NCBI GenBank assembly: GCA_030390025.1 | Contig: CM059432.1 | Coordinates: 18,912,001 to 18,976,000, forward strand | Source: Squalus acanthias | Lineage: Eukaryota | Direction of reading: 5' to 3' | Length of the DNA stretch: 64,000 nt | Part shown: in pieces, positions 232 through 63,945 of the stretch | How the letters are laid out: every line of letters starts with the position of its first letter | Position numbering within the stretch: position 1 is the first letter of the stretch | Position numbers and translations under genes: made by a program | Notes under the pieces: generated by a model | Told to the model about the DNA's origin: nothing | Database searches by the model: none | Seen by the model: only the letters and a program-made list of their open reading frames with translations

Positions 232-344
232 TACAAAAGGAAAATACTGCTGATGCTTGAAATCTGAAACAAAAATAAAAACAGAAAATGCCTGAAATAC
301 TCAGCAGGTCGGGCAGCATCTGTGGAGAGCAAAACAAAGTTAAT
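232..344 (-). mobile_element. half copy of the Penelope-type palindromic short element, cut at the Harbinger insertion
   Basis: aaaacagaaaatgcctgaaatactcagcaggtcgggcagcatctgtggagag...gttaat matches an arm of 14974-15206. Confidence 0.75.
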
Positions 345-3236: not shown

Positions 3237-3459
3237 GTATGTTCAGCCCCTCTCCTTATCTCATCCCACTTCCCCCTCACACCACAAACCTTTCTCACTT
3301 TCCACCTTCTGAGAATGTCTACATTCCTTGCTCCATTCCTGCACCCCTGCCCTCACCTTAACACGAGTGTTGTGCCTTTATGCTTTCAGATAATCACAGT
3401 GGAATCACAAAGTGATGGAATGATGGCGACGTGCTCAGCAACCGGAATGAGGACTCAAA

Positions 3460-3801
3460 GTCACTGCAAACGAAGTCTGATGAGGCGGTCACGGACCGAC
3501 TTGCAGAACGCCAATTGAGTGGCTGCCTCCTCCATCGCTGCTGTTTGTCCTCCTGTTCCTCCTGCTCCTCCTCTTCCTCCTCCTCATTCTCGTCCTCTTC
3601 CTCCTGAGGTGGTGGAGTTATGCCTGGTGGCAATGGCTGCGCCCTCATAATGGCCAAGTTGTGCAGCATGCAGCAGACAATGACAAAAATTGACACCCAC
3701 TCAGACGAGTACTGGAGGGCTCCTCCCGAACGGTCAAGGCAGCGGAACCGTTGCTTGAGCACTCCGATGGTCTGCTCAATGATGTTCCTGGTGGCAGCAT
3801 G
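3460..3801 (-). pseudogene. Harbinger DDE transposase (HARBI1-like) C-terminal fragment
   Basis: HAATRNIIEQTIGVLKQRFRCLDRSGGALQYS...VCCMLHNLA followed by an acidic tail. Confidence 0.85.
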
Positions 3802-4825
3802 ACTTGACGCTGCACACCCTGGCTGCCATATGATGCACCAAGTTGGCATCACCCCACACGAACACCATAAAGCATCCCTACAATGCCCAAGCCATTCCTT
3901 TCACACTCATCAGCATTGCGGGGGGGGGGGCAACCTTATGTCTCACCATTCACTGAAACTCACTAAGCCACTTCCAAAGGTGCACACAAATCTGTCCAAG
4001 AACGCAAAGTGTTGAAAATAAAGGTTTCAATGTTTGACAGCACATTAACAGAAATTTAACATGAATATTGGCTAAAACACCCAAGTGCCTACCCTTGTGT
4101 GTTATTAGTTGGTATGATTGGATGAGGATGAGGGTGAGTGTGAGGGGTGGCTAGTGAGATGGGGATGTGATAATGTAGATAGAGAGAAAATGGGCGGAGG
4201 GGCAAGGTAAGTTGGTGTGAGTAAGGATGTGCAGGAGTAGGGTAGGGAAGGCAGAGTGATGGGGATGTGATGAGTGGCACAGCAGGATGAGTTTGAGTGT
4301 GGCTTTGCAGTAACGTTTCCTGATCTACTGAGATCATTGAAAGGTTTGCGCAACTGCAGCCACGTCCTCCTGATGACATCCCTGCTTGTGCCCTCCTGTG
4401 CAATGTGCAACCAGGCTGCGTTGGTCTCCTGGGGAGGTCTCTTCCGCCCATTGGAAGGGAAGAGAACCTCCCTGTATGCTGTGACTCCCTCCATAAGCAT
4501 ATGGAAGGAGTCATGGGAGAGGCTGGGTGCAGCCGTGCACCTCTGTGCAGTCATTGTCAGTGTTTGCAACACCTCAATGCTGTAGAACTTTGGCAGCACA
4601 ACTGTCAAAGTAAATTTAGACATGGCCCCTTTAAGGAAACCGGCTGATGACGCATCATCAAATGACATCATCAGACCCGCTTCCTTTTAATTAGCCGGGA
4701 ACCTCGCTGGGCGGGCTTCACAAGCCCAATCAACGTAAAATCACTTCAACAGAGCAGGATGGAGCAGGCAGCGGACTGGGACCACGCGACTGACCCCGGC
4801 CGCCCCGGTAAGTGAAATCACGGCC
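3802..4825 (-). mobile_element. non-autonomous Harbinger family 1, copy A (partial, Myb side)
   Basis: Colinear with 29245-30973, 52845-54563 and 56768-58348. Terminus GGCCGTGATTT at 4825; Myb-like ORF 4105-4671. Confidence 0.85.
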
Positions 4826-6620: not shown

Positions 6621-9163
6621 ATTCTTAAGTGTCCTGGACCTAGCTCTTTTCTCCATCGTGCTACAGACCCAACTCCTATCTAGGATAGGTTTCCTGGTAC
6701 TCAGCTCATGTCTGCACCTTATTGCATCCCAGCTCCTGTCCATGGCAAGTGTCATAGTCCCCATCTTACATCTCCAACCTGTTCCAGGCTTGTCTCCCAA
6801 GCTCTTAAACACATGAGTTTCCAGGTTAGCTCCTATCTGTGCCAGTTTAATTTTAACATGGGTGAGCGGGTGGGAGTGGGTGCAGGTTGGGGGTTAAATG
6901 GGCAAAAAATCGAAGCATGTCGGGAAGCTGGCTCCAACCCGCTGACTTCCGGGTTTTACTGAGGCGGGACAAGAGGCGGGCAGCCAGCCCGCTCCCAGGA
7001 AGCATGCGGGGAAAGCCAGATTTCCGGGATTCACACGCACTACCAGACCCCCTCCCCCCCGGCTCCCAGCGCATTGGGAAGTAAACATTCCCCCCAATGT
7101 GTCTGGGCAATGGACAGTCTCAGACCCCAAACTCTATCTAAATTTTCCACTCGTTAACCTATTTCTCCTGGGCCCCTACTAAATATTAGTTGCACCCTAT
7201 TTAAGTATCAACCATCAGTTTCTAACTGAACTATGGCAATTCCAATCTCTCTGTCTCTTTTTTTCCATAGACACTCATCCCTGACTGTAAACAATCATCA
7301 ATCTCAATCCTTTGATGTCTTGATAGTCAGTCATAATCTCAACTCAGGGCTATACTTTGTTAATGTTAATACCGTGCTTAATCCCCAATTTTAGAAAACA
7401 TTTAAACTTATCAAGAATGCGGAAGCATAAAGTGGCTTTGTTTCTTAAGTGCTCAGGTTCAGTCTAAATCCTGTCATCATTCGGCAATCAATTACCGACT
7501 GTGTACTGAACAACTAATTTAAATACAGTCATATCAATCAATGATTTACATATTTATTTCTACCCAATGACTAATGCTGCTGTTTGCCAAATTCAGATGG
7601 TTGCAGATGATCTATTGCCATCACAGTAACCAGCATCTTTTAGAAGCAACATTCTGGGACAGGAGTTAGCATAGAACACAACAATCCACCACCATTCCTA
7701 TTTTATTAAAGGCTGACCTTCATAAGGGTCTCGGCCAACACGTATGCACAAAGATTATAAAGCAATATGCAAAAGCTGCATGAAGAGAGAGTTAAAAACA
7801 ACACCAGCAGCTTTCTGTGAGGCAGTAGTTCTGAAAGTCTTATAATCTCTGTGCAGTAAAATGAGAATGTGCAGAAATGACCTTTTTGCTAATGAAGAAT
7901 CTGCGATTCAAAAACACAAATGCATTTTTCATGTCCTCTTGAACAAACACTTTAGTGACAGTGTTAATTTTCCTTTCTACACCTTCTTCACTCTGTGTTA
8001 TTCATATTGGACTAATTTTATATTTATTGCCTATGTGTCCCTGTCTTACAATGCTAATGCTTTCTCAGGCAGGTTTTGTACTGCTTTCGTACCCTGTTTG
8101 TCTAATGTGTCTCCATTATTCAGCTGAGAGGGGAGGGAGTGACTTTCTGCCAGCCTTCCTGCTTAACGAAAAAGGACAGGAAAAGACCCTCCGGTCCATT
8201 GAGCCTATCCTGTCCCAGCACGGTGCAACTTACACGCCCTGTCCCAACCATCCCTCTGGCCCCCATAGTCAGGCAGTCTACTGGGAGAAGCACTTCTCTC
8301 ACCTTTCCTGTGAGAAAGTATTTGGTATTCACCATCCCCAGCTGAACAGCTGAGATCGGGAAGTCAGCATGTGTGGAGTTGTGTTTGTGAACGAGCATCC
8401 TACCAGATTGTGAGGCCGCATATTAAGTGCGCCAATGAATCATGCGATTGAACTGGCAGGGAAAGTGAAACTAAACATCATAGTCTGCAATCGAATCAAA
8501 GCTATCTTTGAGGCAAATCAAGTGAGGCCTTGGCTGGAAACATAAGATCAATAAAATAACACTAATCTGAGGAAAGTTGAACAAGAACTTTTCTGGTTAG
8601 GCCTCATCTAGATTCCTATCTCTAGTTTTGGTCCCTTCACATGGTGAGTGATATGGATTATTCTTTTTGCAGAGGACCATTGACCTTTGGCATCATTTGC
8701 CAGTTTGTGCAGTGGGTGCGAACATTCAAAACAGAGCTAGATGCGTTCCGGCCTGTGACTGATATCACAGCGTCCAAATGATGGGTGGGGTATTGGCTGA
8801 TGTGCCTCATGGTCACTGTGGTCTTCTGGAACATGTTTTCATCACCTTAGCGGTCAGATCTTTTTTTTCTCCTTGAATTGGTCTGGAGTTTATTTTTTAC
8901 ACCCGTTCTTTTGCCTTTCCCAAGACATTACGCAACTGCTGATGGGTATGGAGCGGTGGGGATCATGATGCTCCATTGCAAAATGACTGTATGGGACAGG
9001 CTCGATGGACCAGCTGATCTTTATCCATCTGTCATTTTTGTTTTTTTTCCATATATAGATAGGTAACTATCAGGAAATACTGAACAGGCTGGAGCTCTTA
9101 TCTCTAGAAAAGAGAAGGCTGAGGTGTGACCTAGTGAAGGTCTTTAAAATTATGAAGAGGTTT

Positions 9164-13320: not shown

Positions 13321-14973
13321 ACCTCAATGTATCAGCTGGCTAAAGGGGTGTCACGGTGTCTAGGAGCAGTTGCAAAGGTAAATGGCATGTTAGGGTACAC
13401 AGCTTGATCCGTAGTATATAAACCCGAGGAACTGTACTGACACTTTTGCAAGCACAGGTGAGACCACAAGAAGAATATTGCATCAGGTGTGGTCAGTATA
13501 TTTAAGAAAAGATACAGAAAGTGGAAGATATTCACAAGATAGGGCTTGGACGTAGAAGGCCCATCGGCTCACAATCTCATCTTTATCAACACTAGTGCCT
13601 TCCCATTAGAGCATTTACCAATTTCTTAAAAGGTTTCAGTGTTCTGGTCTAAACCACCAACCTGTTCTAGCTGTTGATCACCCTCTTTGAGAGGCAACAC
13701 TTCCTGGCATCTATCCCAAACTTATCCTTCACAACCCTGCACCTTTGCCTTTTTATCCTGCTTGTCTTGCCAAAGAAGGGGGACCAAAGATGATTCCAGT
13801 TTGTAGATCATTGAATTATGAAGAGGAACTAAGGGAGCTGACTTTACTTTGGGCAGAATAATGACTATGGGAGATATAAATCATGTCATGATACAGAAAA
13901 GCATCAAACCAGGATAGAAGAACTAGTTTATTAAATGAGGAAACTGTAAGCTACGTGCAGCACGAGGGATAACTCCCTCAGCTGGGAGTCACCCATTTAT
14001 GGAATAGACTGCCACCTGGTGTAGTAAATAATCGCATTGTTGAATCATTCAAAAGGGAATTGAATCAGTTCCTGATTCACCAGGAACAAGTGTTTTGGGG
14101 TAGGATAATGATAAGAAATGGAGAGATTTGGTTCTGAAAAAGGACTTGAGTGAGTCAGATTAACTGTGCAGACTTTCCTTTATCTCGTGTTTTTTGGTTG
14201 CGATAGCTATGTAATATATTTAGGATAATAAAAGCCAAATGGTTCAACTGGAGAACTACTATGCCAGGCAATTGACCAACCGTAATACAGGATTTATTCA
14301 ACTGCGTATTAGAGGAGAATATTTTATTTTGCATGTCTTTCACAATTGTAATTCAATCATGCAGTTATGATACACCAGAATGAGACTCAAAATGAATCTG
14401 GAAGCTGGTTAAACCTGAAGGTATAGAGCATCATACAACAGGCATTGGAGGTTTTATTTCCCTCATCATTGAATAAACTGTTCAGCCGACAGGATCATAA
14501 TTTTACTGCATCTGTTTGTACAGTCTCATTGTATTTCAATAATGTGCATTTTAGTCATCACTATAGCAGGATATAAGCCGAGTGCTAAAATATTATTGCT
14601 TTAAAATTGGTACTAAATTGTGTAAGAGCAAATTAACAGGCACTGGGTAATGCTCTATTTATCAGAAATCTCAGTTGGCTTTCATTAGAATGGTTCCAAT
14701 ATTTCCTAGTCCCTAATCATAAATATCATCTGGAACTAACTGTACTTCCACATTTCTCTCTTTTGGGGGCAGCATTAACTAAACATTTCACCTCAATATT
14801 GTACTAATCTCTCAGCTAGTCAAGTTAAACACGAGGAAACCCTTTACAGTGGAGCAAGTTTTATTTTAATTTCGATTTTACACACTTTTCAGAAAGAATA
14901 TTGCGGTAGCTAGCAACAAGAGATTAAATACATTATTTATTTCGACATTGCTTAACTACTTAGTGTAGGTGTG

Positions 14974-15206
14974 AAATAAAAACAGAAAATGCTGGAAATA
15001 CTCAGCAGGTCAGGCAGCATCTGTGGCGAGAGAAACAGAGTTAACGTTTCAGGTCGATGACCCTTCGTCAGTTCTGACGAAAGGACATCGACCTGAAACG
15101 TTAACTCTGCTTCTCTCTCCACAGATGCCGCCTGACCTGCTGAGTATTTCCAGCATTTACTGTTTTTATTTCAGATTTCCAGCATCCGCAGTATTTTGCT
15201 TTTGTA
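14974..15206 (+). mobile_element. Penelope-type palindromic short retroelement with 14-bp TSD
   Basis: Inverted arms 14974-15071 and 15074-15171 (6 mismatches counted by eye) with a 2-nt loop. TSD TTAGTGTAGGTGTG at 14960-14973 and 15207-15220. Confidence 0.8.
15070..15106 (+). ncRNA. minimal type I hammerhead ribozyme motif (Penelope-like)
   Basis: AGTT-CTGACGA-A-AGGAC-ATC-GACCT-GAAA-CG-TT-AACT: stem I AGTT/AACT, core CUGANGA...GAAA, stem II, a palindromic ACGU stem III with no loop, and a GUU cleavage triplet. A mirror core lies on the - strand at 15039-15071. Confidence 0.6.
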
Positions 15207-15399
15207 TTAGTGTAGGTGTGGTCTTCCTTGTTCTCTGAAGGAAGTTCCACCTCTGTTTATAAATAGGAATTATTGTCATCTCACAGGCAGGGCTGGGTGG
15301 GTAGAGGGGAGTGGGGGAGAGATTGTCCTTGGCAGGAACTTACACTGTTACAATGCTTTGGTGAGCTGATTTGTCCCATTTTGTTCTGCATAGCATCTC

Positions 15400-23339: not shown

Positions 23340-25055
23340 TTAGGAGGTGTGGACGAGACGGTGCGGCAGTCTGATGGGCCGGCCGGAGCGGCTCTTGTAG
23401 GACGCCGGTGGACGTGGGACGGCCGGGCGTGGAGCAGCCAGGTGAACCGGCTTGAGGGCAGGTCGGCCGCGTGGAGGTGGACGAGCTACAGGGACCTGCT
23501 CCCCGGGCTCCGAGTGTGCTGGCTTGAGTCGGTCCACCGACACTTTTTCGGTCCTGTCGCCCACTTGCAGGATGAAAAATTTGTCCCCAGCCTGTAGCAC
23601 CTTGTAGGGTCCGTCGTACGGGGGTTGAAGGGGTCCGCGGTGGGCGTCGTGCCGGATGAAAACAAACCGTGCCTGGTGCAGGCTTAGTGGGACGTGTGAG
23701 GTGGATTCGCCGTGTCGGGCAATGGGCACCGGGGCGAACTGCAGCGCCGGTGAGGCGAAGTTGTGGCGTTGCTGGTCGGCTGACCAGGGTGTCGTGGCAG
23801 TGGGCAGGAACTCGCCGGGTACGCGCAGTGGCTGACCGTACACGAGCTCTGCTGCCGATGCGTGGAGGTCTTCTTTAACCGCGGTGCGCAGGCCAAGGAG
23901 GACCCACGGAAGTCGGTCAGTCCAGGCGCCATCTTGGAGGCTGGCTCGAAGAGATGCCTTCAAGGATCTGTGGAACCGCTCACACAGTCCGTTGGCTTGG
24001 GGGTGGTACGCTGTGGTGCGGTGGATGGTCACCCCGAGATTGCGTGCGACGGCGGTCCAGAGTTCAGAGGTAAATTGTGGACCTCTGTCCGACGTCATGT
24101 CGGAGGGGAGGCCGAACCGTGCAACCCAGGTGCTGACGAAGGCTCTGGCGATGTCGGCGGTGGTGGTAGAGGTCAGTGGAATTGCCTCAGGCCAGCGTGT
24201 GGTGCGGTCAACGATGGTCAGCAAGTGCGTGTGGCCTTGCGACGGCGGCAGGGGCCCGACGATGTCCACGTGGATGTGGTCGAATCTCCGCGAGGGGACG
24301 GTAAACTCCTCGAGGGGTGCTTTCGTGTGTTGCTGTACCTTGGCACGTTGGCAGGATAGGCAGGAGTTGGCCCAAGTACGCACATCCTTGCGAAGGCCGC
24401 GCCAGACAAAGCGGTTGACTACCAATTTGATGGATGCGCAGGCGCCGGGGTGGGAGAGGTTGTGGAGAATGTCGAATATGCGGCGGCGCCAGGACGCTGG
24501 GACGACGGGCCGAGGTTGACATAGGGATATGTCGCACTTGACCGTGACTGCGGTCGGGCCACAGGCGACGTCGGCCAGGCGTAGCCCTGGTAGGTTGGTG
24601 GGTGCGGAGAGCAGATCCGGGTCGGTGATCTGGTCTGCTGCAAGTTGAGCGTAGTCGACTGCTAGGTGTGCGGCGTGGATGGCGGGGCGGGAGAGGCAGT
24701 CGGCTACCACATTGTCTCGGCCGGAGACGTGTTGGATGTCCGTGGTGAACTCGGACACTGCCGCGAGCTAACGCTGCTGCCTGGCGGACCAGGGGTCGGT
24801 TGTCTTTGCCATTGCGAATGTCAGGGGCTTGTGGTCGACAAACGCAGTGAAGGGGTGGCCCTCAAGCAAAAACCGGAAATGGCGGACCGCCAGGAACAGC
24901 GCGAGGAGCTCGCGGTCGAAGGTGCTGTACTTGACCTCCGGGGGGCGTAGTTGGCGGCTGAAGAAGGCAAGTGGTTGCCAGGCGCCGTCGACCCACTGCT
25001 CATACACGGCGCCGACCGCGTGGTTGGAGGCGTCCGTGGTGAGCGCTACCCTGGC
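23340..25055 (-). pseudogene. pol 3' part: RNase H plus integrase (zinc finger, DDE core, GPY/F)
   Basis: ALTTDAS...PLAFFSRQL...YSTFDRELLA...DHKPL, one in-frame TAG at 24768-24770, then HNLSH...CLSC, HVDIVGP, SDRGPQF, NGLCERFH and PPYDGPY. Confidence 0.9.
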
Positions 25056-26261
25056 ATTTGTCCACAGACGGAAGAGTGGATTATGCCCGTTTTAGGTGGC
25101 GATCCGCCACAGCGTCATGCTTATTTTCAGCAGGTGAATTCTTCTGTTAAAATAACGGATAGAGGAATGTCATATGAACCCGACAAACGTTTATACCCTA
25201 ATATCACAAACAGTAATGGTAAAGCCATAATGCTGGCTAATATAATCATTTCTGAACACACTTGAAGCAGACAAGATTAAAAAAAAATCCCCTCCCTGGA
25301 TCACATCCCCTCCCCCTCGGCTCCAATCGCTGGCCAGCTCCGATGCAGAACCGACAGGTTTCCCACCTACCCCAACCGGAACTTCAACGGAGCACCGACT
25401 TGGCGCTGGCACCTTGCCGGCAGCATGCAAATGAGGCCCGGGCCTGAGAATGGCTTAGGCGCCTCATGGCGGTAACAACAGGCAAGGAGCAGGCAAGCCT
25501 GTTGTGTGGCTAAAACTAAAATGAAGGCCCCGGCGAGTGATGCCGTCGCAGACAATGCGAATGAAAGACTCACAGACAAATACGGCTTAGAGTGAGAACC
25601 ATTTCAGGCTTCATTTAATAAAACCGAAATGATTTGGCTAAAAGTGGCCACTTTGTTGAGGTCTGTAACACCCTGAGAGTGGAATCAATCTGGCAATCCA
25701 GCCTTTTTCAGGATTACAGTCACGTAATGGGATTAGTAACTAAAAACAGCCCATTTTCTTATTGCACGATGCACAAACACCATTCCCATCAAGCTTCTTT
25801 TAGAGCAGGGCTGTTAACACTGTTGCAGCTGATCTTATTTATTGAATCTGAGCCTGTCCAATCTGATCAAATTAGAGAGACTTCCACTGACATGTATGGA
25901 TTTTGACAGCACACAGAGTAAACAGCAACAACTAACCTCACTGTGTATGACAGACAATGGTGCAGTTATTTGCATGCACTTATCAGCCCCTTAATGATTC
26001 TGCACCGTTCAGTGGGAGCTATGTCAGTAGCATTTATGCAGAAATATATTTCCCGGCTTTTACTCAAACAAATAGGTCACAGCTATTAGTCACAAAGCAT
26101 CACCACTAGTTGTAGGCTTAGAGATAGGGTCTTAAAGGGCATTATCTTCATGCAAAATATTTTTGACAAACCATTTGTCGGTTTACCATGCACTGCAAAG
26201 TTTCACAGTTTGCAGTGAAACCTGGTATTATGTTGTGAAAACAGCATTGCTATCCACAGCG

Positions 26262-26960
26262 CCTCCCGTCCCCGCAACCCCCGCCCCCCGCCACCACAAC
26301 CCCCCGCCCCCGCACCCTCCGCCACCCCCCGCCCCTCGCTATCACCACTCCCGCCCCCGCACCCCGCACCCCGCCCCACGCACCACCCGCCACCACCACC
26401 CCCCGCCCCCGCACCCCCCGCCCCTCGCTACCACCACCCCCGCACCCCCCGCCCCTGCCACCACCACCCCCCGCCCCCGCACCCTCCGCCACCACCCCCC
26501 ACCCCTCGCTATCACCACTCCCGCCCCCGCACCCCGCACCCCGCACCCCACCCCACGCACCTCCCGCCACCACCACCCCCCGCCCCCGCACCCCGCACCC
26601 CCCGCCCATCGCTACCACCACCCCCGCCCCCCGCACCCTCCCTGCCACCACCACCCCCCGCCCCCGCACCCCGCACCCCCCGTCCCTCGCTACCACCACC
26701 CCCGCCCCCCGGACCCCCCCACCACCACCACCCCCCGCCCCTGCACCCCCCCACACCCCACACCCCACACCCCACACATCCCACCCTCCACCCCCCACCC
26801 CACACCCCCCAACCCCCCCACTCCACACCCCCCACCACACACCCCACCACACGCCCCACCCCCCCCCACTCCACACCCCCCACCACACACCCCACCACAC
26901 ACCCCACACCCCCCGCCTCCCACACGCCCCACCCCACACACCCCACCCCCCCGCCCCCCT
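26262..26960. repeat. C-rich (G-rich on -) compound minisatellite
   Basis: Recurrent CCCCGCACCC, CCACCACCCCC and CCCCACAC units with larger duplicated blocks. Confidence 0.9.
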
Positions 26961-26965
26961 CAGGT

Positions 26966-27035
26966 CGACATGCTGCCTGACCCACTGAGTATTTGCAGCA
27001 TCTTATGCTGTCATTTCACATTTACAGCATCCGCT
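26966..27035 (+). mobile_element. fragment of the Penelope-type short element
   Basis: atgctgcctgacccactgagtatttgcagcat...tttacagcatccgc matches 15125-15190. Confidence 0.6.
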
Positions 27036-29107: not shown

Positions 29108-29244
29108 AATTGAAGGTCTCTCTTCGCCCCTCTGATCACCCTTTTAACTTGTTCCTGCAGGATCTTGTATTTATCTCCAGGAGGCCCTTCTCTTTCTTCT
29201 GGCAGGATTTGTAAGGGTAATTTTTCTCTTTATTTCACTTCTCT

Positions 29245-30973
29245 GGCCGCGGTTTTCCCTAGCTCGGCTGGTCCATGGCGGGCGATGTCGGAGGCGGGTC
29301 CCGACCCCGCTGCTGGCTCCATCCTGGCCTCTGAACTGGCTTTCCCCTGATTGGGCTTGTTAAGCCCGCCCAGCGAGTTTCCCAGCCAATTGAAGGAAGT
29401 GGCCTATGGCATCCGTGCAATCAGCCGGTTTCCTTAAAGGGGCCATGCGCAAATTTACTTTGACATTTGTGCTGTCAGTGTTCTACAGCATTGAGGTGCT
29501 GCAAACACTGACAATCATTGCACAGAAGTGCACGGCTGTACCCAAGCTCTTCCATGTCTCCCTCCATATGCTTATGAAGGGAGTCACAGCACGCAGGGAG
29601 GTTCTCTTCCCTTCCAATGGGCGGAAGAGACCTCCCCAGGAGACCAACACAGCCTGGTTGCACATTGCACAGGAGGGCACAAGCAGGGATGTCGTCAGGA
29701 GGACCAGGCTGCAGTGGCGCAAACCTTTGAATGATCTCAGTAGATCACAAAACGTTACTGCAAAGCCACACTCAACCTCATCCTGCTGTGCCACTCATCA
29801 CATCCCCATCACTCTGCCTTTCCTACCCTACTCCTGCACATCCTTACTCACACCAACTTACCTTGCACCTCCATCCATCCCTCTCTATCTACATCATTAT
29901 CACTTCCCCATCTCACTAGCCACCCCTCACGCTCACCCTCATTCTAGTCCAATCATACCAACTAACAACACACAAGGGTAGGCACTTGTGTTTTTTAGCC
30001 AATGTTCATGTGAAGTTTCTGTTAATGTGCTGTCAAACATTGAAATCTTTATTTTCAACACTTTGCTTTCTTGGACAGATTTGTGTGCACCTTTGGAAGT
30101 GGCTTACTGAGTTGCAGTGAATGGTGAGACATAATGGTACCCCCTGCAATGCTGATGAGTGTGAACAAAATGGCTTGGGCATTGTACGGATGCTTTATGG
30201 TGTTGGTGTGGGGTGGTGCCAACCTAGTGCATCATGTGGCAGCCAGGGTGTACAGCGTCAAGTGAAGTAAATCTGGCCATGGTGAGGCCAACCCTGGCGT
30301 CCCAAGCAGCAATGTGGTCGGGTGCTGATGCCCTCTGTCCTGTGCAGCATCAAGTGATTTCGGAGAAGGTTGGTGTGGATTTTGGTGCTGCTGGTGTGCC
30401 TGGTGATGCTGGTGCTAGGGCTGATCGTGGTGGGATTCTGAGGACCAAGGTGAGAGATAATAAAGTGCACCGATGCTGATGGAATAGATGGCAGGTGAAG
30501 TAAAGATGACAGAAACGATCTGTCAATGATGGGAGAGGTAATGAGGTCAGACTGAATGGAGACTTGTGTAAAGACTTGCAGCATTCTGAATCTGGAGTGG
30601 AAATGCAGTTTAGAGAAGCTAGTGCTTAAGGGAGGATATCTGAATCAGCTGGGAACTTTGGTTGACATTTGAAGCTGTCAACTCATCAGCTGATTCAATG
30701 GCCAATGACCTCCTGCCTCACCTTCACTGACGAGGTCTAGGCACAGCGGGAAACCGGTGAAAGTTAAAAAGCTGTAAAAAAAAAGCATCGTTAAGTGGCT
30801 GTAAGCAAGCCACTAATGATTTGAATTGGGTCCCCCGCCGCTGCCTGTCGGGTCTGCTCAGCGCTGGCAGACCCGACATCGGGAAATGCAGGCGTGTGCG
30901 TTTTGACAGCGGGTTCCTGACCCGCTGTCAATCATTTTAAATTTCACCGCTGAGCGCCGGCAAAATCGTGGCC
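29245..30973 (+). mobile_element. non-autonomous Harbinger family 1, copy B (complete)
   Basis: Ends GGCCGCGGTTTT / GGCCACGATTTT; flanks TCT/TTT; contains Myb-like ORF 29406-29981. Confidence 0.85.
29406..29981 (+). CDS. TE-borne Myb/SANT-like ORF (191 aa); function and expression unknown
   Basis: AVPKLFHVSLHMLMKGVTARREVLFPSNGRKRPPQETNTAWLHIAQEGTSRDVVRRTRLQWRKPLNDL fits the NAIF1/Myb_DNA-bind_5 pattern; H/P/T/S-rich tail. Confidence 0.45.
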   Translation: MASVQSAGFLKGAMRKFTLTFVLSVFYSIEVLQTLTIIAQKCTAVPKLFHVSLHMLMKGVTARREVLFPSNGRKRPPQETNTAWLHIAQEGTSRDVVRRTRLQWRKPLNDLSRSQNVTAKPHSTSSCCATHHIPITLPFLPYSCTSLLTPTYLAPPSIPLYLHHYHFPISLATPHAHPHSSPIIPTNNTQG

Positions 30974-42151: not shown

Positions 42152-42283
42152 GGTTAACATTTCAGGTCATAGAACAGGTTCTATTGAAGGGTCATAGACC
42201 TGAAACATTTACACTATCTTCTTAACTCCGCAGATGCTGCCTGACCTGCTGAGTGTTTCCAGCATTTTCTGCTTTTATATTTT
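42152..42283 (+). mobile_element. degenerate Penelope-type short element
   Basis: gttaacatttcaggtc...gaagggtcatagacctgaaacatt...cagatgctgcctgacctgctgagtgtttccagcattttctg. Confidence 0.75.
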
Positions 42284-48619: not shown

Positions 48620-50030
48620 TCCACTCCAGCTGGGGCCTAACCAGCGATTTATAAAGGTTGATCATAACTTTCTTGCTTTTGTAGTCTATCCCTCTACTTA
48701 TAAAGCCAAGGATCAAGTATGCCTTTTTAACAGCCTTCTCAACTTGTATGTCTCTCTGTTCCAGCAGCCCCATTAAAATTGTTCCATTTAGTTTATATTG
48801 CCTCGCTTCATTTTTCCTACCAAAATGAATCACTTCACACTTCTCTGTGTTAAATTTCATCTACCATGGGCTGGATTTTGAAACTGGGGTCGGGTTGGGG
48901 TCGTGAATCACACATTCTGGCTTGTAAACCCACCTCCATCGAGATGTGGCCAACCCACTGTATTTTCCCTTGATTGACCTTGTTGAGCCCGCCCAGTGGG
49001 CTCAGCAGGCCAATTAAGGGCTACCCGGCAACAGGTGACGTCACAGATTGACATTTCATCTGTCAAGAGCTTTTGACAGATGAAATATCAGCGTTTGACA
49101 GCTCTGTGAAGCTGTCAAACACTCACAATATGATTTCTAACTTGAGTCCTTCCTCTCAGGCTGAGTTAGAAATCATTCCACCACAGAAAACAGAAGGCTG
49201 CAGTTTTTGACAGGACCACGGCTTTTCTGCTTTCTGTGCCGGTGAGATTTCTGACTCCCGAGAACTGAAGGGCTGACACCTGCAGGAGGAAGTTAAAGTA
49301 AGTAAAACTTTTTCCCACACTTAGCACTTACCTTACACACTTACCTCTGCACACATGCACCCATCACTCACCTGCCCACCGGACATATTGACCCCTCCAA
49401 CCCCTGCAGACCCACAGTCTGCCCCGATAACTTGGCGTGGTTGCCACCTGTCGGGAAGCCCACATTTCACCTGTCAAAATAGGGATTATGCAAAAAACTG
49501 CATGTTAACTACCTGTTAACAGGCAGTTAATTGTCACTAATCCCTTCCCGCCTCGGGGAGTCGGGTCTCAGCACAGGTTGGGTACCCGCCGCCAGCGAAA
49601 CTGGCATGGAGGCGGGTTGGAGGCGGGATGGGGTCGGGACCCCCGAATCTGCAACTTTAACCCCCCCCCCCCCCCCGCCTCCAAACCCGACTCCACGGGT
49701 CATTGAAAATCCAGCCCAAAGTGTCTGCCCATTTCACCAGTCTATTTATGTCCTCATGAAATCTGTTACTCTCCTCCTCATTGTTTACTTCATTTCCGAT
49801 TTTTGTGCAAACTTTGAAGTTAAGCCCTGTCATTAAGTCCAGGTCATTAATATATATCAAAAAGAGCAGTGGTTCCTACAGCGACCCCTGGGGGACACCA
49901 CTGCACACTTCCCTCCAGTCTGAAAAACAACCGTTCACCGCGATTCTCTGCTTTCTGTCCCTTTGCCAATTTTGTATTCACGCAGCCATTGCCCCATTAA
50001 TCCCATGAGCTTCAATTTTGCGAACAAGCT
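48620..50030 (-). mobile_element. CR1 RT fragment hosting a family 2 MITE
   Basis: MKFNTEKCEVIHFGRKN...LVRPQLE; IYINDLD...LVKWAD. Confidence 0.8.
48868..49717 (+). mobile_element. Harbinger-type MITE family 2, copy C (diverged subfamily)
   Basis: TIR GGGCTGGATTTT; shares its internal core with 18814 and 43522. Confidence 0.85.
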
Positions 50031-52844: not shown

Positions 52845-54563
52845 GGGCTGGATTTTGCGGGGGGTCAGTGGGCTCGATCCATGGCGTGTCGGGTGGAAAA
52901 GTGTTTTTTTTCCGCAGCGGGTCAGGACCCCACTGTGAACCAGCCGCCACGCGCCTTTCCCCGATGTCAGGTCTGTCAATGCTGAGCAGACCCGACACGC
53001 AGCGGCGGGGGAGGCAATTAAAATCATTAGTGGCTTGTTTACAGCCACTTATCAATGTTTTTTCCCCAGCTTATTCATTTGACAGGTCGTCCACCGGTTT
53101 CCCGCTGTGCCTAGCTGAGGCGGGAGATTAGTGGCCATTGAATCAGCTGATGAGTTGACTGCTTCAAATGTCAAGTCAAAGCTCCCAGCTGATTGAGACA
53201 TGTTCCCTTAACCACTAGCTTCTCTAAACTGCATTTCCACTACAGATTCAGGATGCTGCAAGTCTTTACACAAGTCTCCATCCAGTCTGACCTCATTACC
53301 TCTCCCACCATTGAAGATCACTTCTGTCATCTCTACTTCACCTGCCATCTATTCCGTCAGCATGGGTGCTCTTGATGCACTCTCACCTTGGTCCTCAGCA
53401 TCCTGCCACAATCAGCCCCAACACCAGCAGCACCAGGCACACCAGCAGCACCAACAACAACACCAACCTTCTCCGCAATCACCTGATGCTGCACAGGACA
53501 CAGGGCATCAGCAGCCGACCACATTGCTGCCCGGGAGGCCAGGAATGGCCTCACCATGGCCACATTTACTTCACTTGATGCTGTACACCCTGGCTGCCAC
53601 ATGATGCGCCAGGTTGGCACCACCACACACCAACACCATAAAGCATCCCTACAATGCCCAAGCCATTCCTTTCACACTCATCAGCATTGCGGGGGGTACC
53701 GTTATGTCTCACCATTCACTGCAACTCACTAAGCCACTTCCAAAGGTGCACACAAATCTGTCCAAGAATGCAAAGTGTTGAAAATAAAGATTTCAATGTT
53801 TGACAGCACATGAACATTGGCTAAAACACACAAGTGCCTACCCTTGTGTGTTGTTAGTTGGTATGATTGGACTAGGATGAGGGTGAGTGTGAGGGGTGGC
53901 TAGTGAGATGGGGATGTGATAATGTAGATAGAGAGGGATGGGTGGAGGTGCAAGGTAAGCTGGAATGAGTAAGGATGTGCAGGAGTAGGGTAGGAAAGGC
54001 AGAGTGATAGGGATGTGATGAGAGGCACAACAGGATGAGGTTGAGTGTGGCTTTGCAGTAACGTTTCGTGATCTACTGAGATCATTGAAGTCAGGTCCTC
54101 CTGACGACATACCTGCTTGTGCCCTCCTGTGCAATGTGTAACCAGGCTGTGTTGGTCTCCTGGGGAGGCCTCTTCCGCCATGGGAAGGGAAGAGGACCTC
54201 CCTACGTGCTGTGACTCCCTCCATAAGCATATGGAGGGAGTCATGGGAGAACCTGGGTGCAGCCCTGCACCTCTGTGCAGTGCTTGTCAGTGTTTGCAGC
54301 ACCTCAATGCTGCAGAACACTGACAGCACAACTGTCAAAATAAATTTTGACATGGTCCCTTTAAGGAAACTGGCCGATGACGCATCATAAATGACATCAT
54401 CAGACCCGCTTCCTTCAATTGGCTGGGAAATGCCCTGAGCGGGCTTAACAAGCCCAATCATCGGAAAGTCATTTCCGAGGCCGGGATGGAGACAGCAACA
54501 GGGCCGAGACCTGCCACCGACGTTGCCCGCCACGGACCCGCCGAGGTAGGGTAAATCGCGGCC
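52845..54563 (-). mobile_element. non-autonomous Harbinger family 1, copy C; TSD AAA; inserted in a + strand CR1 (~52530-54740)
   Basis: ttcttctccacacaaa|GGGCTGGATTTT ... AAATCGCGGCC|aaaaagttttgagaatgtgg; CR1 sequence continues across the insertion. Confidence 0.9.
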
Positions 54564-54989
54564 AAAAAGTTTTGAGAATGTGGAGCACATGCAAATACAA
54601 TTGAGGTGTTTAAAAGGAAATAGATACCTATTTGGGAAATAAGGATGACAAGGGATAACAAAAAGGCAGGGAATTAAGATTTAAAAGATAAACCTGACAC
54701 AGCATGCTCGATGGCCCGAGTGACCTATTCTTTGTTTCCATGAAGTCTTGAGAAAGAAAGATATCTGGCCTTTTGTTACTGTGTTGCAGTATCAGAGATT
54801 GAAGATTTTACTAATTGCAAAGAATTGCCAATTGATCCCTCTTCTCTTTGCTTAGGACATTAATGAAAACAATAAGATTGCCTACACACAGTCATGATAC
54901 AGATTATCCATTTAGACATTTGTTACATTTCCCAATATTTTATGACCTTAGTTGATGAGTCTCTTGGATGGTTTGTGTATGGTTTTGCC

Positions 54990-56767: not shown

Positions 56768-58348
56768 GGGCTGAATTTTGCCGGCGCTCAGAGTGTGGGT
56801 TTGGAGGCGGGTCCGCTGTCAAAATCACAAAGATTGACAGCGGGTTGGTATCCCGCTGTAAACCCGCCTTTTTGTCAGTTTCCCAAGTGTCGGAAAGCTT
56901 CTTAAAAGGTAGTTAAGAACCATTTTCCCAGGTTTTCAACGAGGTTCCCGTCAGGTAAGTATGTCGGGTTCTCAATGACTGTGGATTGCTGTGAATAGGT
57001 AAAAGCTGCAAAAGTGGTCTAAAACCTACCATTTCACAGCTGATCATTTCCCAATCTTAGAAGCTGAAGCATTACTGATTTGGAATCCACTTTTGTGCTT
57101 TATGCACTTTTGAAGTGTTCGGTGTAATCTCTCTATCCACTGTCACCTCCTTGGAACAACCTATCTCAACATTGACAAATTATTTCTGTCATCTCAACCT
57201 CACCTGGCATCTATTCCATCAGCATTGGTGCCCTTGAAAAAATCTCACCTTGGTCCTCAGAATCCCAACATGATCAGCCCCAACACCAGTGCCACCGGGC
57301 ACACCAGCAGCACCAACATCCACACCAACCTTCTCCGCAATCAACTGATGCTGCACTGGACAGCAATGGCCTCACCATGTCCAGATTTGCTTCACTTAAC
57401 ACTGTACACCCTGGCTGCCACATGATGCACCAGGTTGGCACCACCCCACACCAGCACCATAAAGTATCCCTAAAATGTCCAAGCCATTCCTTTCACACTC
57501 AGCACCATTGGGGGGGCATGGGGGGGAGTTTTGTTTCACCAGCGAACTTCCAAAGGTGCACACAAATCTGTCCAAGAAAGCAAAATGTTGAAAATAAAGA
57601 TTTCAATGCATGACAACACATTAACAGACACTTTACATGAACATTGGCTAAAGCACACAATGGCTACCCTTGTGTGTTGTTAGTTTGAATGATTGGACAA
57701 GGATAAGGATGAGTGTGAGGAGTGGTTAGTGAGATGGGGAAGTGATAACGTAGATAGAGAGGGATGGGTGGAGGTGCAAGGTAAGTTGGTGTGAGGAGTA
57801 GGGTAGGGTAGGGAAGGCAGAGTGATGGGGATGTGATGAGTGGCACAGCAGGATGAGGTTGAGTGTGGCTTTGCAGTAATGGTTTGTGATCTACTGAGAC
57901 CATTGAAAGGTTTGCGCCACTGAAGCCTGGTCCTCCTGACCACATCTCCGCTGTGACCTCCTCTGCAATGTGCAACCAGGCTGCGTTGGTCTCCTGGGGA
58001 GGTGTGTTCCACCCATTGGAGGGAGTAATGGGAGAACCTGGGTGCAGCCGTGCACCTTTGTGCAGTGCTTGTCAGTGTTTGCAGCACCTCAATGCTGCAG
58101 AACAGAGAGCACAACTGTCAAAATGAATGTGGACATGGTCCCTTTAAGGAAACCGGCTGATGATGCGTCATCAAATGGCGTCATCAGACCCGCTGCCTAG
58201 TAATTGGCCGGGAACCTCGCAGGGCGGGCTTCACAAGCCCAATCAACGGAAAATCTTATTGGAGGCTGGGATCGACACAGATGCGGGATCCCCACATGCC
58301 ACGGACGTCACCCGCCCCGGACCCGCCGAAGTTGGTAAAATCCAGCCC
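56768..58348 (-). mobile_element. non-autonomous Harbinger family 1, copy D; TSD TAG
   Basis: tag|GGGCTGAATTTT ... AAAATCCAGCCC|tag; Myb-like ORF 57680-58114 with an internal deletion. Confidence 0.9.
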
Positions 58349-61387: not shown

Positions 61388-63945
61388 CAACAACAACAAC
61401 TTCTATTTATATAGCACCTTTAACGTAGTAAAACATCCCAAGGCGCTTCACAGGAGTATTAAAAGACAAAAAATTTGACACCAAGCCACATAAGGAGAAA
61501 TTAGGGCAGGTGACCAAAAGCTTTGTCAAAGAGGTAGGTTTTAAGGAGCATCTTAAAGGAGGAAAGAGAGGTAAAGAGGCGGAGAGGTTTAGGGAGGGAA
61601 TTCCAGAGCTTAGGGCCTAGGCAACAGAAGGCACGGCCACCAATGGTTGAGCGATTATAATCAGGGATGCTCAAGAGGGTAGAATTAGAGGAGCGCATCT
61701 CAGGTGGGGGGGGGGAGGGGGCGGTGGGGGGGTGCTGCTAAAGGAGATTACAGAGATAGGAAGGAGTGAGGCCATGGAGGGATTTGAAAACAAGGATGAG
61801 AATTTTGAAATTAAGGCATTGCTTAACCGGGAGCCAATGTAGGTCAACGAGCACAGGGGTGATGGGTGAACGGGACTTGGTGCGAGTTAGGACACGGGGC
61901 AGCCGATTTTTGTATGAGCTCAAGTTTACGTAGGGTGGAATGTGGGAGGCCAGCCAGGAGTGCATTGGAATAGTCGAGTCTAGAGGTAACAAAGGCATGG
62001 ATGAGGGTTTCAGCAGCGGATGAGCTGAGGCAAGGGCAGAGATGTTTGATGTTACGGAGGTGGAAATAGGCAGTCTTAGTTATGCTGTGGATATGTGGTT
62101 GGAAGCTCATTTCAGGGTCAAATATGACACCAAGGTTGCGAACAGTGTGGTTCAGCCTCAGACAGATGTTAGGGAGAGGGATGGAGTCAGTGGTTAGGGA
62201 ACGGAGTTTGTGGCGGGGTCCACAAACAATGGCTTCGGTCTTTCCAATATTTAAATGGAGAAAACTTTTGCTCATCCAGAACTGGATGTCGAACAAGCAG
62301 TCTGACAATTTAGAGAAGGTGGAGGTGTCGAGAGAAGTGGTGGTGAGGTAGAGCTGGGTGTCGTCAGCATACATGTGGAAACTGACACTGTGTTTTCGGA
62401 TGATGTCGCCCCTTGGTGACATATAGATGAGAAATAGGAGGGAGCCAAGGATGGATCCTTGGGGGACACCAGAGGTAACAATGCCGGAGCGGGAAGAGAA
62501 GCCATTGCAGGTGATTCTGTGGCTGCGATAAGATAGATAAGAATGGAACCAGGCGAGTGCAGTCTCACCCAGCTGGACGACGGTGGAGAGGCGTTGGAGA
62601 AGGATGGAGTGGTCAAACGTGTCAAAGGCTGCAGACAAGTCAAGAAGGACGAGGAGGGATAGTTTACCTTTGTCACAGTCACAAAGGATGTCATTTGTGA
62701 CTTTGCTGAGAGCCGTTTTGTTACTGTGGTAAGGGCAGAAACCTGATTGAAGGGATTCAAACATGGAATAGCGGGAAAGATGCGCATGGATATGGGAGGG
62801 CAACAACACGTTCAAGGACTTTGGAGAGGAAAGGGAGGTTAGAGATGGGGCGGTAGTTTGCAAGGACGGAGAGGTCAAGGGTAATTTTTTTGAGGAGAGG
62901 GGTGATGACGGCGATTTGAGGGAGAGGGGGACAGTACCTGAGGAGAGAGAACCGTTAACAATGTCAGCTAACGTGGGAGCCAGAAAAGGAAGTTGGGTGG
63001 TCAGCAGTTTGGTGAGAATAGAGTCGAGGGAGCAGGAGGTAGGTCTCATGGACAAGATAAGCGCAGAGAGATCATGAGGGGAGATTGGAGAGAACCTGGA
63101 GAAAGATGTGAGTTCAGTGCTAGGGCAGGGGGGAACCTTAGAGGAAGTTTGGCCCGGTGGGCTAGGGAATGAAGGGTGTAAGAATAAAAATATTTTGTCA
63201 AAATTATGTTGTGTGATGGACTCGAGACTATTAATATAAGATGTATGTAATAAAGATGAATTTAACGTGTAAGGATCTCCCCTGGGTGGGTGGAGCTCAA
63301 GGCAACGGAGTGAAACTTAACAAAAGAAATCTGCATAACAAGGTAACCCCCACAGAGACAGCAGGACTTTAAGGGTAAACAAACCCATCGAAAACCCATC
63401 AAAACTCACCATCGAAACTCAGAGCCATTAAAAGGTGTTAACAAAACGATTAACTTAATAAAGAAATGGCACCAGCCGCTGCCGACAGACACATGGGTGA
63501 GGAAAGCCAATCAAGAACTGCCATGAAACTAAGACCCAATACTGGGTTTTAGCAATTTATACTGGAGACAATGGAATTTAAAAGATACAAAAGAAGGAAC
63601 CCAAAGGCTCTCGCTCTCTCTCTCTCTTGATGACCACACGGAAAAGCAGGAAGACCCCCTCTACAGACCAGACAGAAGCATGGAAGAAGGCCGCGTGCAT
63701 TGCTTGACTCAAAGGAAAGTATAAGTCTGTTTGAATCTGTAACCCATTACCTTACCTGTTGTAATCAAGTAGAGTCCATAGGATACCAGTAGACTGATTG
63801 TTTGGATGTGCATGTGTGTGTGTGTTAAATAAACTTATTCCAAATTGTTTCAAAACAATTGGTCCTGCTGTCAATTTAATGCCAGTCAAAATAAAAAGCT
63901 TACAAGGGAAGTGGCAGAAGCAGCTGAATGGATGGTCTCAATCTC
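61388..63945 (-). mobile_element. L2 LINE, 5'-truncated, RT with YADD
   Basis: ORF 61844-63055 LQSGF...LLDLSAAFDT..H...GVPQGSILG..LF.IYM...HMYADDTQLY...LNIGKTE...AFVTSRLDYSNALL; (GTT)n tail. Confidence 0.95.
63177..63904 (+). mobile_element. solo LTR (728 bp) inserted in L2; TSD AGGG
   Basis: aggg|TGTAAG ... CTTACA|aggg; AATAAA at 63828-63833; L2 sequence continues on both sides. Confidence 0.88.

Follow-up and report, generated by a model that had tools for sequence, protein, structure and literature searches.

A fold-back insertion with two incomplete hammerhead cores, very likely the 5'-truncated stump of a Penelope-like element in a shark-type genome

Architecture of the insertion

The window (the whole stretch of DNA analysed, 64 kb in length) carries at 14974-15206 an insert of 233 bp, flanked by exact copies of a 14-bp target site duplication (TSD), TTAGTGTAGGTGTG, at 14960-14973 and 15207-15220. 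Its principal features are given below, together with three related copies in the same window.

14960..14973, no strand: left TSD, 14 bp; its last two bases (TG) also extend the left arm, a 2-nt junction overlap
14974..15071, minus: tail-less inverted arm; copy of the family end that spans hammerhead C3 through the arm/tail boundary
15039..15071, minus: minimal hammerhead core; 5-bp stem II intact (5 pairs, with G·U at 10.1-11.1), stem I with 0 pairs
15069..15076, no strand: fold-back centre CAG-TT-CTG; bases native to the family, contigs becoming loose only before 15069
15070..15106, plus: minimal type I hammerhead; stem I 15070-73/15103-06, CUGACGA 15074-80, extra A 15081
15074..15173, plus: direct arm, a 5'-truncated pseudo-LTR (pLTR) end; departs from the family majority at 15085, 15110, 15129 and 15159
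15077..15205, plus: 43-codon open frame from the hammerhead core; ACG at its start here, MKG read in four relatives
15174..15206, plus: 33-nt one-sided tail, its end being the terminus common to the family (loose ends 15203-15209)
15207..15220, no strand: right TSD, 14 bp, exact duplicate of the left TSD
232..344, minus: family copy with full tail and without hammerhead, its end coinciding to the base with that of the focal copy
26966..27034, plus: degenerate family fragment with similarity to the right arm, ending mid-tail
42153..42283, plus: second fold-back copy, without tail; inverted arm short and partly deleted, decayed core CTATTGA

The first-pass annotation of this DNA had described a 233-bp retro-insertion with a long TSD, and the duplication was found to be exact at both element edges, precisely where the match is positioned. 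Exact matches of at least 14 nt were encountered in 11 of 5000 random pairs of 30-nt stretches placed 233 nt apart. The inverted arms (14972-15071 and 15074-15173) are 100 nt long and 94% complementary with six mismatches, and the 98 bp originally given for them is likewise correct once the last two TSD bases are excluded. The inverted arm at 14974-15071 shows one listed difference from the family majority, at 15027. Absent from the earlier account was a 33-nt extension of the right arm (15174-15206) lacking a mirror on the left, which constitutes a one-sided tail. The flanks have an AT content of 62-66%, and the RNA of the insert was predicted to form one long hairpin (-162.0 kcal/mol, z = -22.9).

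A long inverted repeat with so stable a hairpin (z = -22.9) speaks for a MITE or fold-back DNA transposon in which a hammerhead-like sequence has arisen by chance, but the 33-nt tail keeps the inverted repeat from being terminal at both ends, the TSD measures 14 bp, some copies lack a full mirror arm, and the family extends 5'. The one-sided tail and the 14-bp TSD lie outside what defines that class, and this origin is largely refuted and scarcely credible.

By eye, the pyrimidine-rich stretches at 15106-15127 and 15158-15174, both ending in CAG, resemble 3' splice acceptors; the CAG of the former directly precedes an ATG, and that of the latter coincides with the arm/tail boundary.

Hammerhead cores

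Two hammerhead cores on opposite strands had been proposed at this locus, and the motifs are indeed present on both strands, but neither core is complete in the focal copy. On the plus strand, stem II (15082-86/15090-94) contains an A·A mismatch (15085·15091), unremarked in the first account, and is followed by GAAA (15095-98) and by CG-U-U, with the predicted cut lying 3' of 15102; stem I (AGTT/AACT, 4 bp) closes on this strand only, all four of its pairs forming as had been claimed. On the minus strand, stem I was destroyed by the fold-back junction. Since T occupies 15085 in ~95% of the family depth among aligned contigs, the A·A mismatch represents decay private to the focal copy, the ribozyme of which is probably inactive.

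The constituents of the published minimal hammerhead (min-HHR) were all found, namely CUGANGA, the extra nucleotide, stem II, GAAA, the palindromic 15.2/16.2, UH, and a short stem I, the plus strand having its one private stem II mismatch and the minus strand being devoid of stem I. This fit to the published consensus upholds the earlier assignment to the minimal hammerheads found in Penelope-like elements (PLEs). A structured descriptor built on that consensus, as given in the accessible part of the PMC4209133 supplement, matched only the two arms in the window, where 200 shuffles yielded a mean of 0.015 matches and in no case two (0/200); the two matches are mirror copies and non-independent, and the plus arm passes only with one stem II mismatch, a tolerance granted after the mismatch had been seen. 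The bare pattern CTGANGA-N6-30-GAAA is unenriched in the window (9 found against 5.85 expected). A search with hammerhead models had also been proposed, and an Rfam scan of the window gave six matches overall with no hammerhead match at E<=1; the two over the element were to miRNA hairpin models, far below gathering scores, and were rejected.

The fold-back competes with ribozyme folding, as had been anticipated, the hairpin reaching -162.0 kcal/mol against -114.2 kcal/mol for a forced hammerhead fold, such that the hammerhead pairs cost 48 kcal/mol. The 29-31 nt lying upstream of the predicted cut are still present in both arms; ribozyme processing is therefore not indicated, and the notion of ribozyme-defined ends was not sustained.

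In the excerpts available of Cervera and De la Pena (2014, PMC4209133), the min-HHRs of PLEs include paired motifs on opposite strands, as in the focal insert, which also has in common with them CUGANGA plus an extra nucleotide, a short stem I, the palindromic C-G at 15.2/16.2, a U-rich upstream flank and, with several of their rows, C-G-U-U. The focal motif differs in its 5-bp stem II with a 3-nt loop, in the spacing of its cores (2 nt apart as opposed to ~100-700 bp in the published pairs), and in having A-U or G·U at 10.1-11.1. According to the same excerpts, this last position is a highly conserved G-C, with A-U and G·U rows also in the alignment; the departure from G-C counts against the PLE interpretation preferred below.

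A longer and highly repeated family

The three further fragments reported earlier for the window were all recovered, matching the right arm at 81-84% identity over 232-343, 26970-27034, and 42153-42278. The last, initially placed at 42152, is likewise a fold-back, which had gone unnoticed; its centre, ATAGAAC-AG-GTTCTAT, is unlike that of the focal copy and lies ~3 nt further 5'. Four family copies with three hammerhead-bearing arms are hence present in the 64-kb window, and of their five arm ends, two fall at the tail end (focal right and 232), two at the arm/tail boundary (focal left and 42278), and one in mid-tail. None of the other three copies has a convincing TSD in the window, and a possible 8-bp TSD of the 42152 copy was dismissed as not above chance.

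The copy at 232-344 stops at TAA, with unrelated sequence abutting at 345 (344-362), which may have inserted later, displacing this copy's hammerhead half; the first 18 bases after 344 have no inverted partner in the window. The 26970 fragment adjoins a C-rich low-complexity tract, and directly 5' of the fragment (26958-26969) stands a 9-nt piece of inverted arm, TCAGGTCGA, a possible remnant of a third fold-back copy that has collapsed. In the window, the upstream family motif is matched once, with 3 mismatches, at 6768, where no further similarity was seen.

Contigs from 4 of 21 listed public runs, covering three organisms, were aligned to the window, numbering 48,393, 100,143, 91,447, and 3,179 per run, with nearly all of the depth over the element. 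The claim of an abundant family is supported by this very high-copy repeat in all four runs; the summed contig depth of ~1e6-8e6 over the element against ~5-12 in the flanks is not a copy number, and the four copies in 64 kb suggest, by extrapolation, 10^4-10^5 or more copies per genome. A common continuation 5' of the hammerhead was observed in all four runs on one or other strand, before 15069 in 227 (X5) and 14 (X14) contigs and behind 15071 in 379, 617, and 609 contigs. With hundreds of contigs continuing in this manner, the full element must be longer, and the focal copy is a 5'-truncated stump. At the opposite end, 424, 645, 549, and 641 contigs of the DNA-type runs enter AT-rich sequence at 15203-15209 with an agreement of 0.36-0.39, and this divergence without consensus points to a fixed 3' end of the family. 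The loose ends at 14972-14975 are a mixture, the consensus of which still includes the start of the tail, and a tail-less terminus is inseparable there. One further contig, over 15177-15343, stems from a run guessed to be RNA and was not counted as expression.

With regard to age, a single organism B contig crosses from the left flank into the element, covering 37 nt of it, and satisfies the bridging rule, with 14 other letters and 15 gap letters in ~500, while two further junction contigs (B right and C left) enter the element by 23 nt, below that rule. A filled site in a related organism indicates that the focal insertion is old, and the flank divergence of ~3-4% between organisms and the divergence of 6% between the focal arms are consistent with insertion before the organisms split. 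Outside these runs, a DNA pattern scan of viral contigs gave 0 matches, and one metagenome locus and one prokaryote genome locus, matching only a 22-23-nt pattern, were discarded as chance.

These data bear directly on the possibility that a discrete, non-autonomous palindromic element, i.e. a ~230-bp fold-back, constitutes a unit in its own right, its transcripts being processed by the ribozyme and copied whole by a PLE enzyme. The copy number is very high, two of the four window copies are fold-backs whose centres differ in position by no more than 3 nt, almost the same fold-back centre is bridged by one paralogous contig (X6 record 26), and non-autonomous PLE derivatives exist according to the excerpts of PMC8557442 and of 10.64898/2026.07.22.740005. 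Set against this, the family continues upstream in hundreds of contigs, the joints among those listed (15 of 997) fall at varied places, the ends are away from the cut site, the hairpin exceeds the ribozyme fold in stability by 48 kcal/mol, neither core is complete, and no tandem arrangement is present, all of which renders a discrete element improbable. The earlier proposal of a discrete, ribozyme-processed short element is not supported, given the upstream continuation.

The same proposal had likened the insert to retrozymes. As described in the portions at hand of PMC7229834 and 10.64898/2026.07.22.740005, animal non-LTR retrozymes are arranged as head-to-tail tandem repeats from which cleavage releases monomers and circles; the focal insert shares with them its short length, non-coding nature, type I hammerhead, PLE relationship, and longer TSD, but differs in being a head-to-head fold-back whose ends do not fall at the cut site (15102/15103). 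A non-LTR retrozyme was rejected since only an inverted pair was found where a tandem is expected, and the lack of a head-to-tail tandem, the differing fold-back centres, and the incomplete cores all tell against a retrozyme-like element.

Probable insertion by a Penelope-like element

The palindrome is better read as an inverted, 5'-truncated PLE copy with a tail than as a retrozyme-like short element. Three traits of endonuclease-positive (EN+) PLE insertions were observed, namely a head-to-head inverted 5'-truncated copy (with a second case at 42153-42283), a 33-nt tail on one side only, and the 5' truncation of a longer element. In the text available of PMC8557442, a 5'-truncated copy in inverted orientation often accompanies PLE insertions, together with a tail of 30-40 bp present on one side, and rotifer PLE copies are described in excerpts of PMC3846280 as having inverted pLTRs, a 31-bp tail, TSDs of 8-10 bp, and palindromic head-to-head junctions, which were ascribed to self-priming. 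As far as these two sources go, the focal insert resembles EN+ PLEs (Penelope/Poseidon and Neptune) in its inverted copy, one-sided tail, long TSD, junction palindrome, and a candidate coding frame beginning in the terminal repeat; it is unlike their examples in retaining only ~135 nt of the element end, and unlike the rotifer examples (PMC3846280) in its TSD of 14 bp rather than 8-10 bp. Very likely, the focal insert is what an EN+ PLE of very high copy number left long ago in a shark-type genome, dead on arrival and severely truncated at its 5' end, and the family itself, judging by this architecture, very probably belongs to the PLEs.

The closest analogue is PAc, a Poseidon element of Anolis, for which Frangieh et al. 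(2024, PMC11167929) report, in the sections available, that the protein cuts and extends both strands, that reverse transcription begins internally at two sites with the tail between them, and that the RNA used is unprocessed, with the hammerhead at the start of the ORF. Shared with PAc are the hammerhead at the start of the ORF (a candidate one here), the retention of an uncut hammerhead, AT-rich flanks, and the positions of the ends, one lying ~100-110 nt downstream and the second one tail further; the inverted arm is left unexplained in those sections of the PAc study. By analogy, the PLE protein would cut both target strands 14 bp apart, and reverse transcription would be primed internally at two sites ~33 nt apart, the tail end and the arm/tail boundary. 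Both cDNA copies would stop just past the 5' edge of the hammerhead and could then be joined via a 3-nt CAG/CTG microhomology. Alternatively, a single cDNA might snap back on the CAG-TT-CTG mini-hairpin, leaving an identical junction that is indistinguishable here. The family contigs agree with the window through 15069, which makes CAG-TT-CTG native sequence, and this suggests that the fold-back centre arose as a 3-nt microhomology join at insertion. An uncut hammerhead was retained by the template, and the ribozyme would in that case be cargo of the pseudo-LTR.

Several observations weigh against an EN+ PLE insertion. No empty site was seen among the joints listed (15 of 997), the tail-less end is inseparable in the contig loose ends at 14972-14975, the centre shared by X6 record 26 would also be expected from a propagating palindromic master, and an uncut hammerhead would also be compatible with a template in circular or concatemeric form. 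Among the 356 window ORFs and in the protein collections, nothing linked the family physically to an RT/GIY-YIG ORF, as detailed next.

Coding potential and the search for the PLE enzyme

Across the right arm and tail, one of the three frames stays open over 43 codons (15077-15205), a length that is not rare by chance. The MKG of the four relatives is as expected if ATG lies in CUGAUGA, the translated relatives reading MKG having been selected for similarity. The translated relatives as a whole carry the names of Scyliorhinus torazame, S. canicula, and Heterodontus francisci, which points to a shark-type genome as host, and they lose similarity to the query at or before the tail end. The frame at 15077-15205 is a candidate for the first codons of the PLE ORF. 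In the protein collections, neither a coding continuation of the frame nor a long RT protein beginning with the arm peptide was found; the arm peptide matched no Pfam family and had no Atlas match, and a peptide-alignment scan of viral contigs confirmed 0 of 601 pattern matches. Ten arm-peptide matches were considered, among which P0005 is a repetitive protein judged unrelated; the alignment of arm-peptide relatives (A1) excludes P0005 as well as P0008, and the others were taken to be reading frames that run by chance through copies of the repeat.

Residues 1-37 of P0014 (Heterodontus francisci RNF14 isoform X2, XP_067899923.1) are a translation of the repeat arm plus tail, and shorter isoforms of 478-479 aa occur in the same RNF14 cluster. 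The N-terminal extension of P0014 is possibly an exonisation or a gene-model artefact.

A domain search of the 356 window ORFs of at least 62 aa, which omitted a low-complexity stretch near 26.1-27.1 kb, returned no GIY-YIG or PLE-type domain, and a six-frame search of the window with PLE RT/GIY-YIG motifs gave nothing convincing. The clear matches were to RT, RNase H, integrase, DDE, and Myb domains that belong to other mobile elements, and all remaining matches were weak or isolated. Nor was a recognisable host-gene domain seen among these ORFs, a search which short exons would escape, and the supposed location within host pre-mRNA was not corroborated within the same limit. The association with Penelope RT/GIY-YIG ORFs that the first-pass annotation had put forward for checking was found neither in the window ORFs nor in the protein collections; its proposal of mobilisation by such an enzyme is likely on architectural grounds.

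This negative result favours a longer non-autonomous PLE derivative (pLTR-only or retrozyme-like RNA, possibly circular) that became inverted at insertion, as does the occurrence of pLTR-related retrozymes in one chondrichthyan according to the part available of 10.64898/2026.07.22.740005. No head-to-tail units are present here, however, and the insertion signature would be identical, leaving nothing positive in its favour; such a derivative is considered highly improbable.

A possible hotspot at the hammerhead edge

A more specific, albeit doubtful, proposition within the EN+ PLE interpretation is that the fold-back point is a hotspot at the 5' edge of the hammerhead, set by a splicing- or structure-defined boundary, rather than a random 5' truncation. 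Both window fold-back centres lie within 3 nt of this edge (n = 2 plus one contig). The CAG-TT-CTG mini-hairpin coincides with family sequence resembling a 3' splice site (CTAAC, pyrimidines, and CAG; unscored), and an acceptor-like CAG (15172-15174) also lies where the inverted arm has its opposite end. The intron of Drosophila virilis Penelope ends at the corresponding position in the excerpted PMC4209133. Under this proposition, two uncut templates, possibly held together by a palindromic hammerhead dimer, would be copied from both nicks until copying stops at the splicing- or structure-defined boundary. If true, the formation of PLE inverted repeats and tails, a step called undefined in the PLE papers, would be recorded at base resolution in many thousands of shark stumps.

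Significance and other features of the window

The focal insert is a real but ordinary dead insertion following a pattern already described for the PLE class, and as a single locus it matters little, being one of a great many such stumps, old and damaged in its ribozyme cores. The family, on the other hand, is a large natural sample of PLE insertion junctions and of modest value as such, tandem and inverted PLE structures being described as still mechanistically unexplained in the available part of PMC8557442. It may, moreover, be a source of long dsRNA hairpins and of new exon sequence in shark transcripts (cf. the horn shark RNF14 isoform). A literature search at the level of listings and abstract openings returned no paper describing the shark family, which Repbase or Dfam may already list, and neither the family motif nor a shark genus name occurs in the supplement files searched for PMC8557442 and PMC4209133. 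The retrozyme consensus tables in the supplements of bioRxiv 10.64898/2026.07.22.740005, which include one chondrichthyan, may bear on novelty.

Elsewhere in the window, the remnant of an LTR-retrotransposon pol, with domains for integrase (475-aa open frame) and RNase H, lies at 23343-25091 (minus), and a LINE-like 490-aa open frame with an RVT_1 domain (E 1.5e-19) at 61847-63316 (minus). Four related repeats of 1-1.7 kb (3397-4800, 29244-30927, 52915-54564, and 57130-58342; 76-88%) carry Myb/SANT-like and DDE_Tnp_4 remnants and are presumably Harbinger-like. A GC-rich hairpin at 49606-49696, which a miRNA model matches on both strands far below its gathering score, is probably a repeat-internal inverted repeat.
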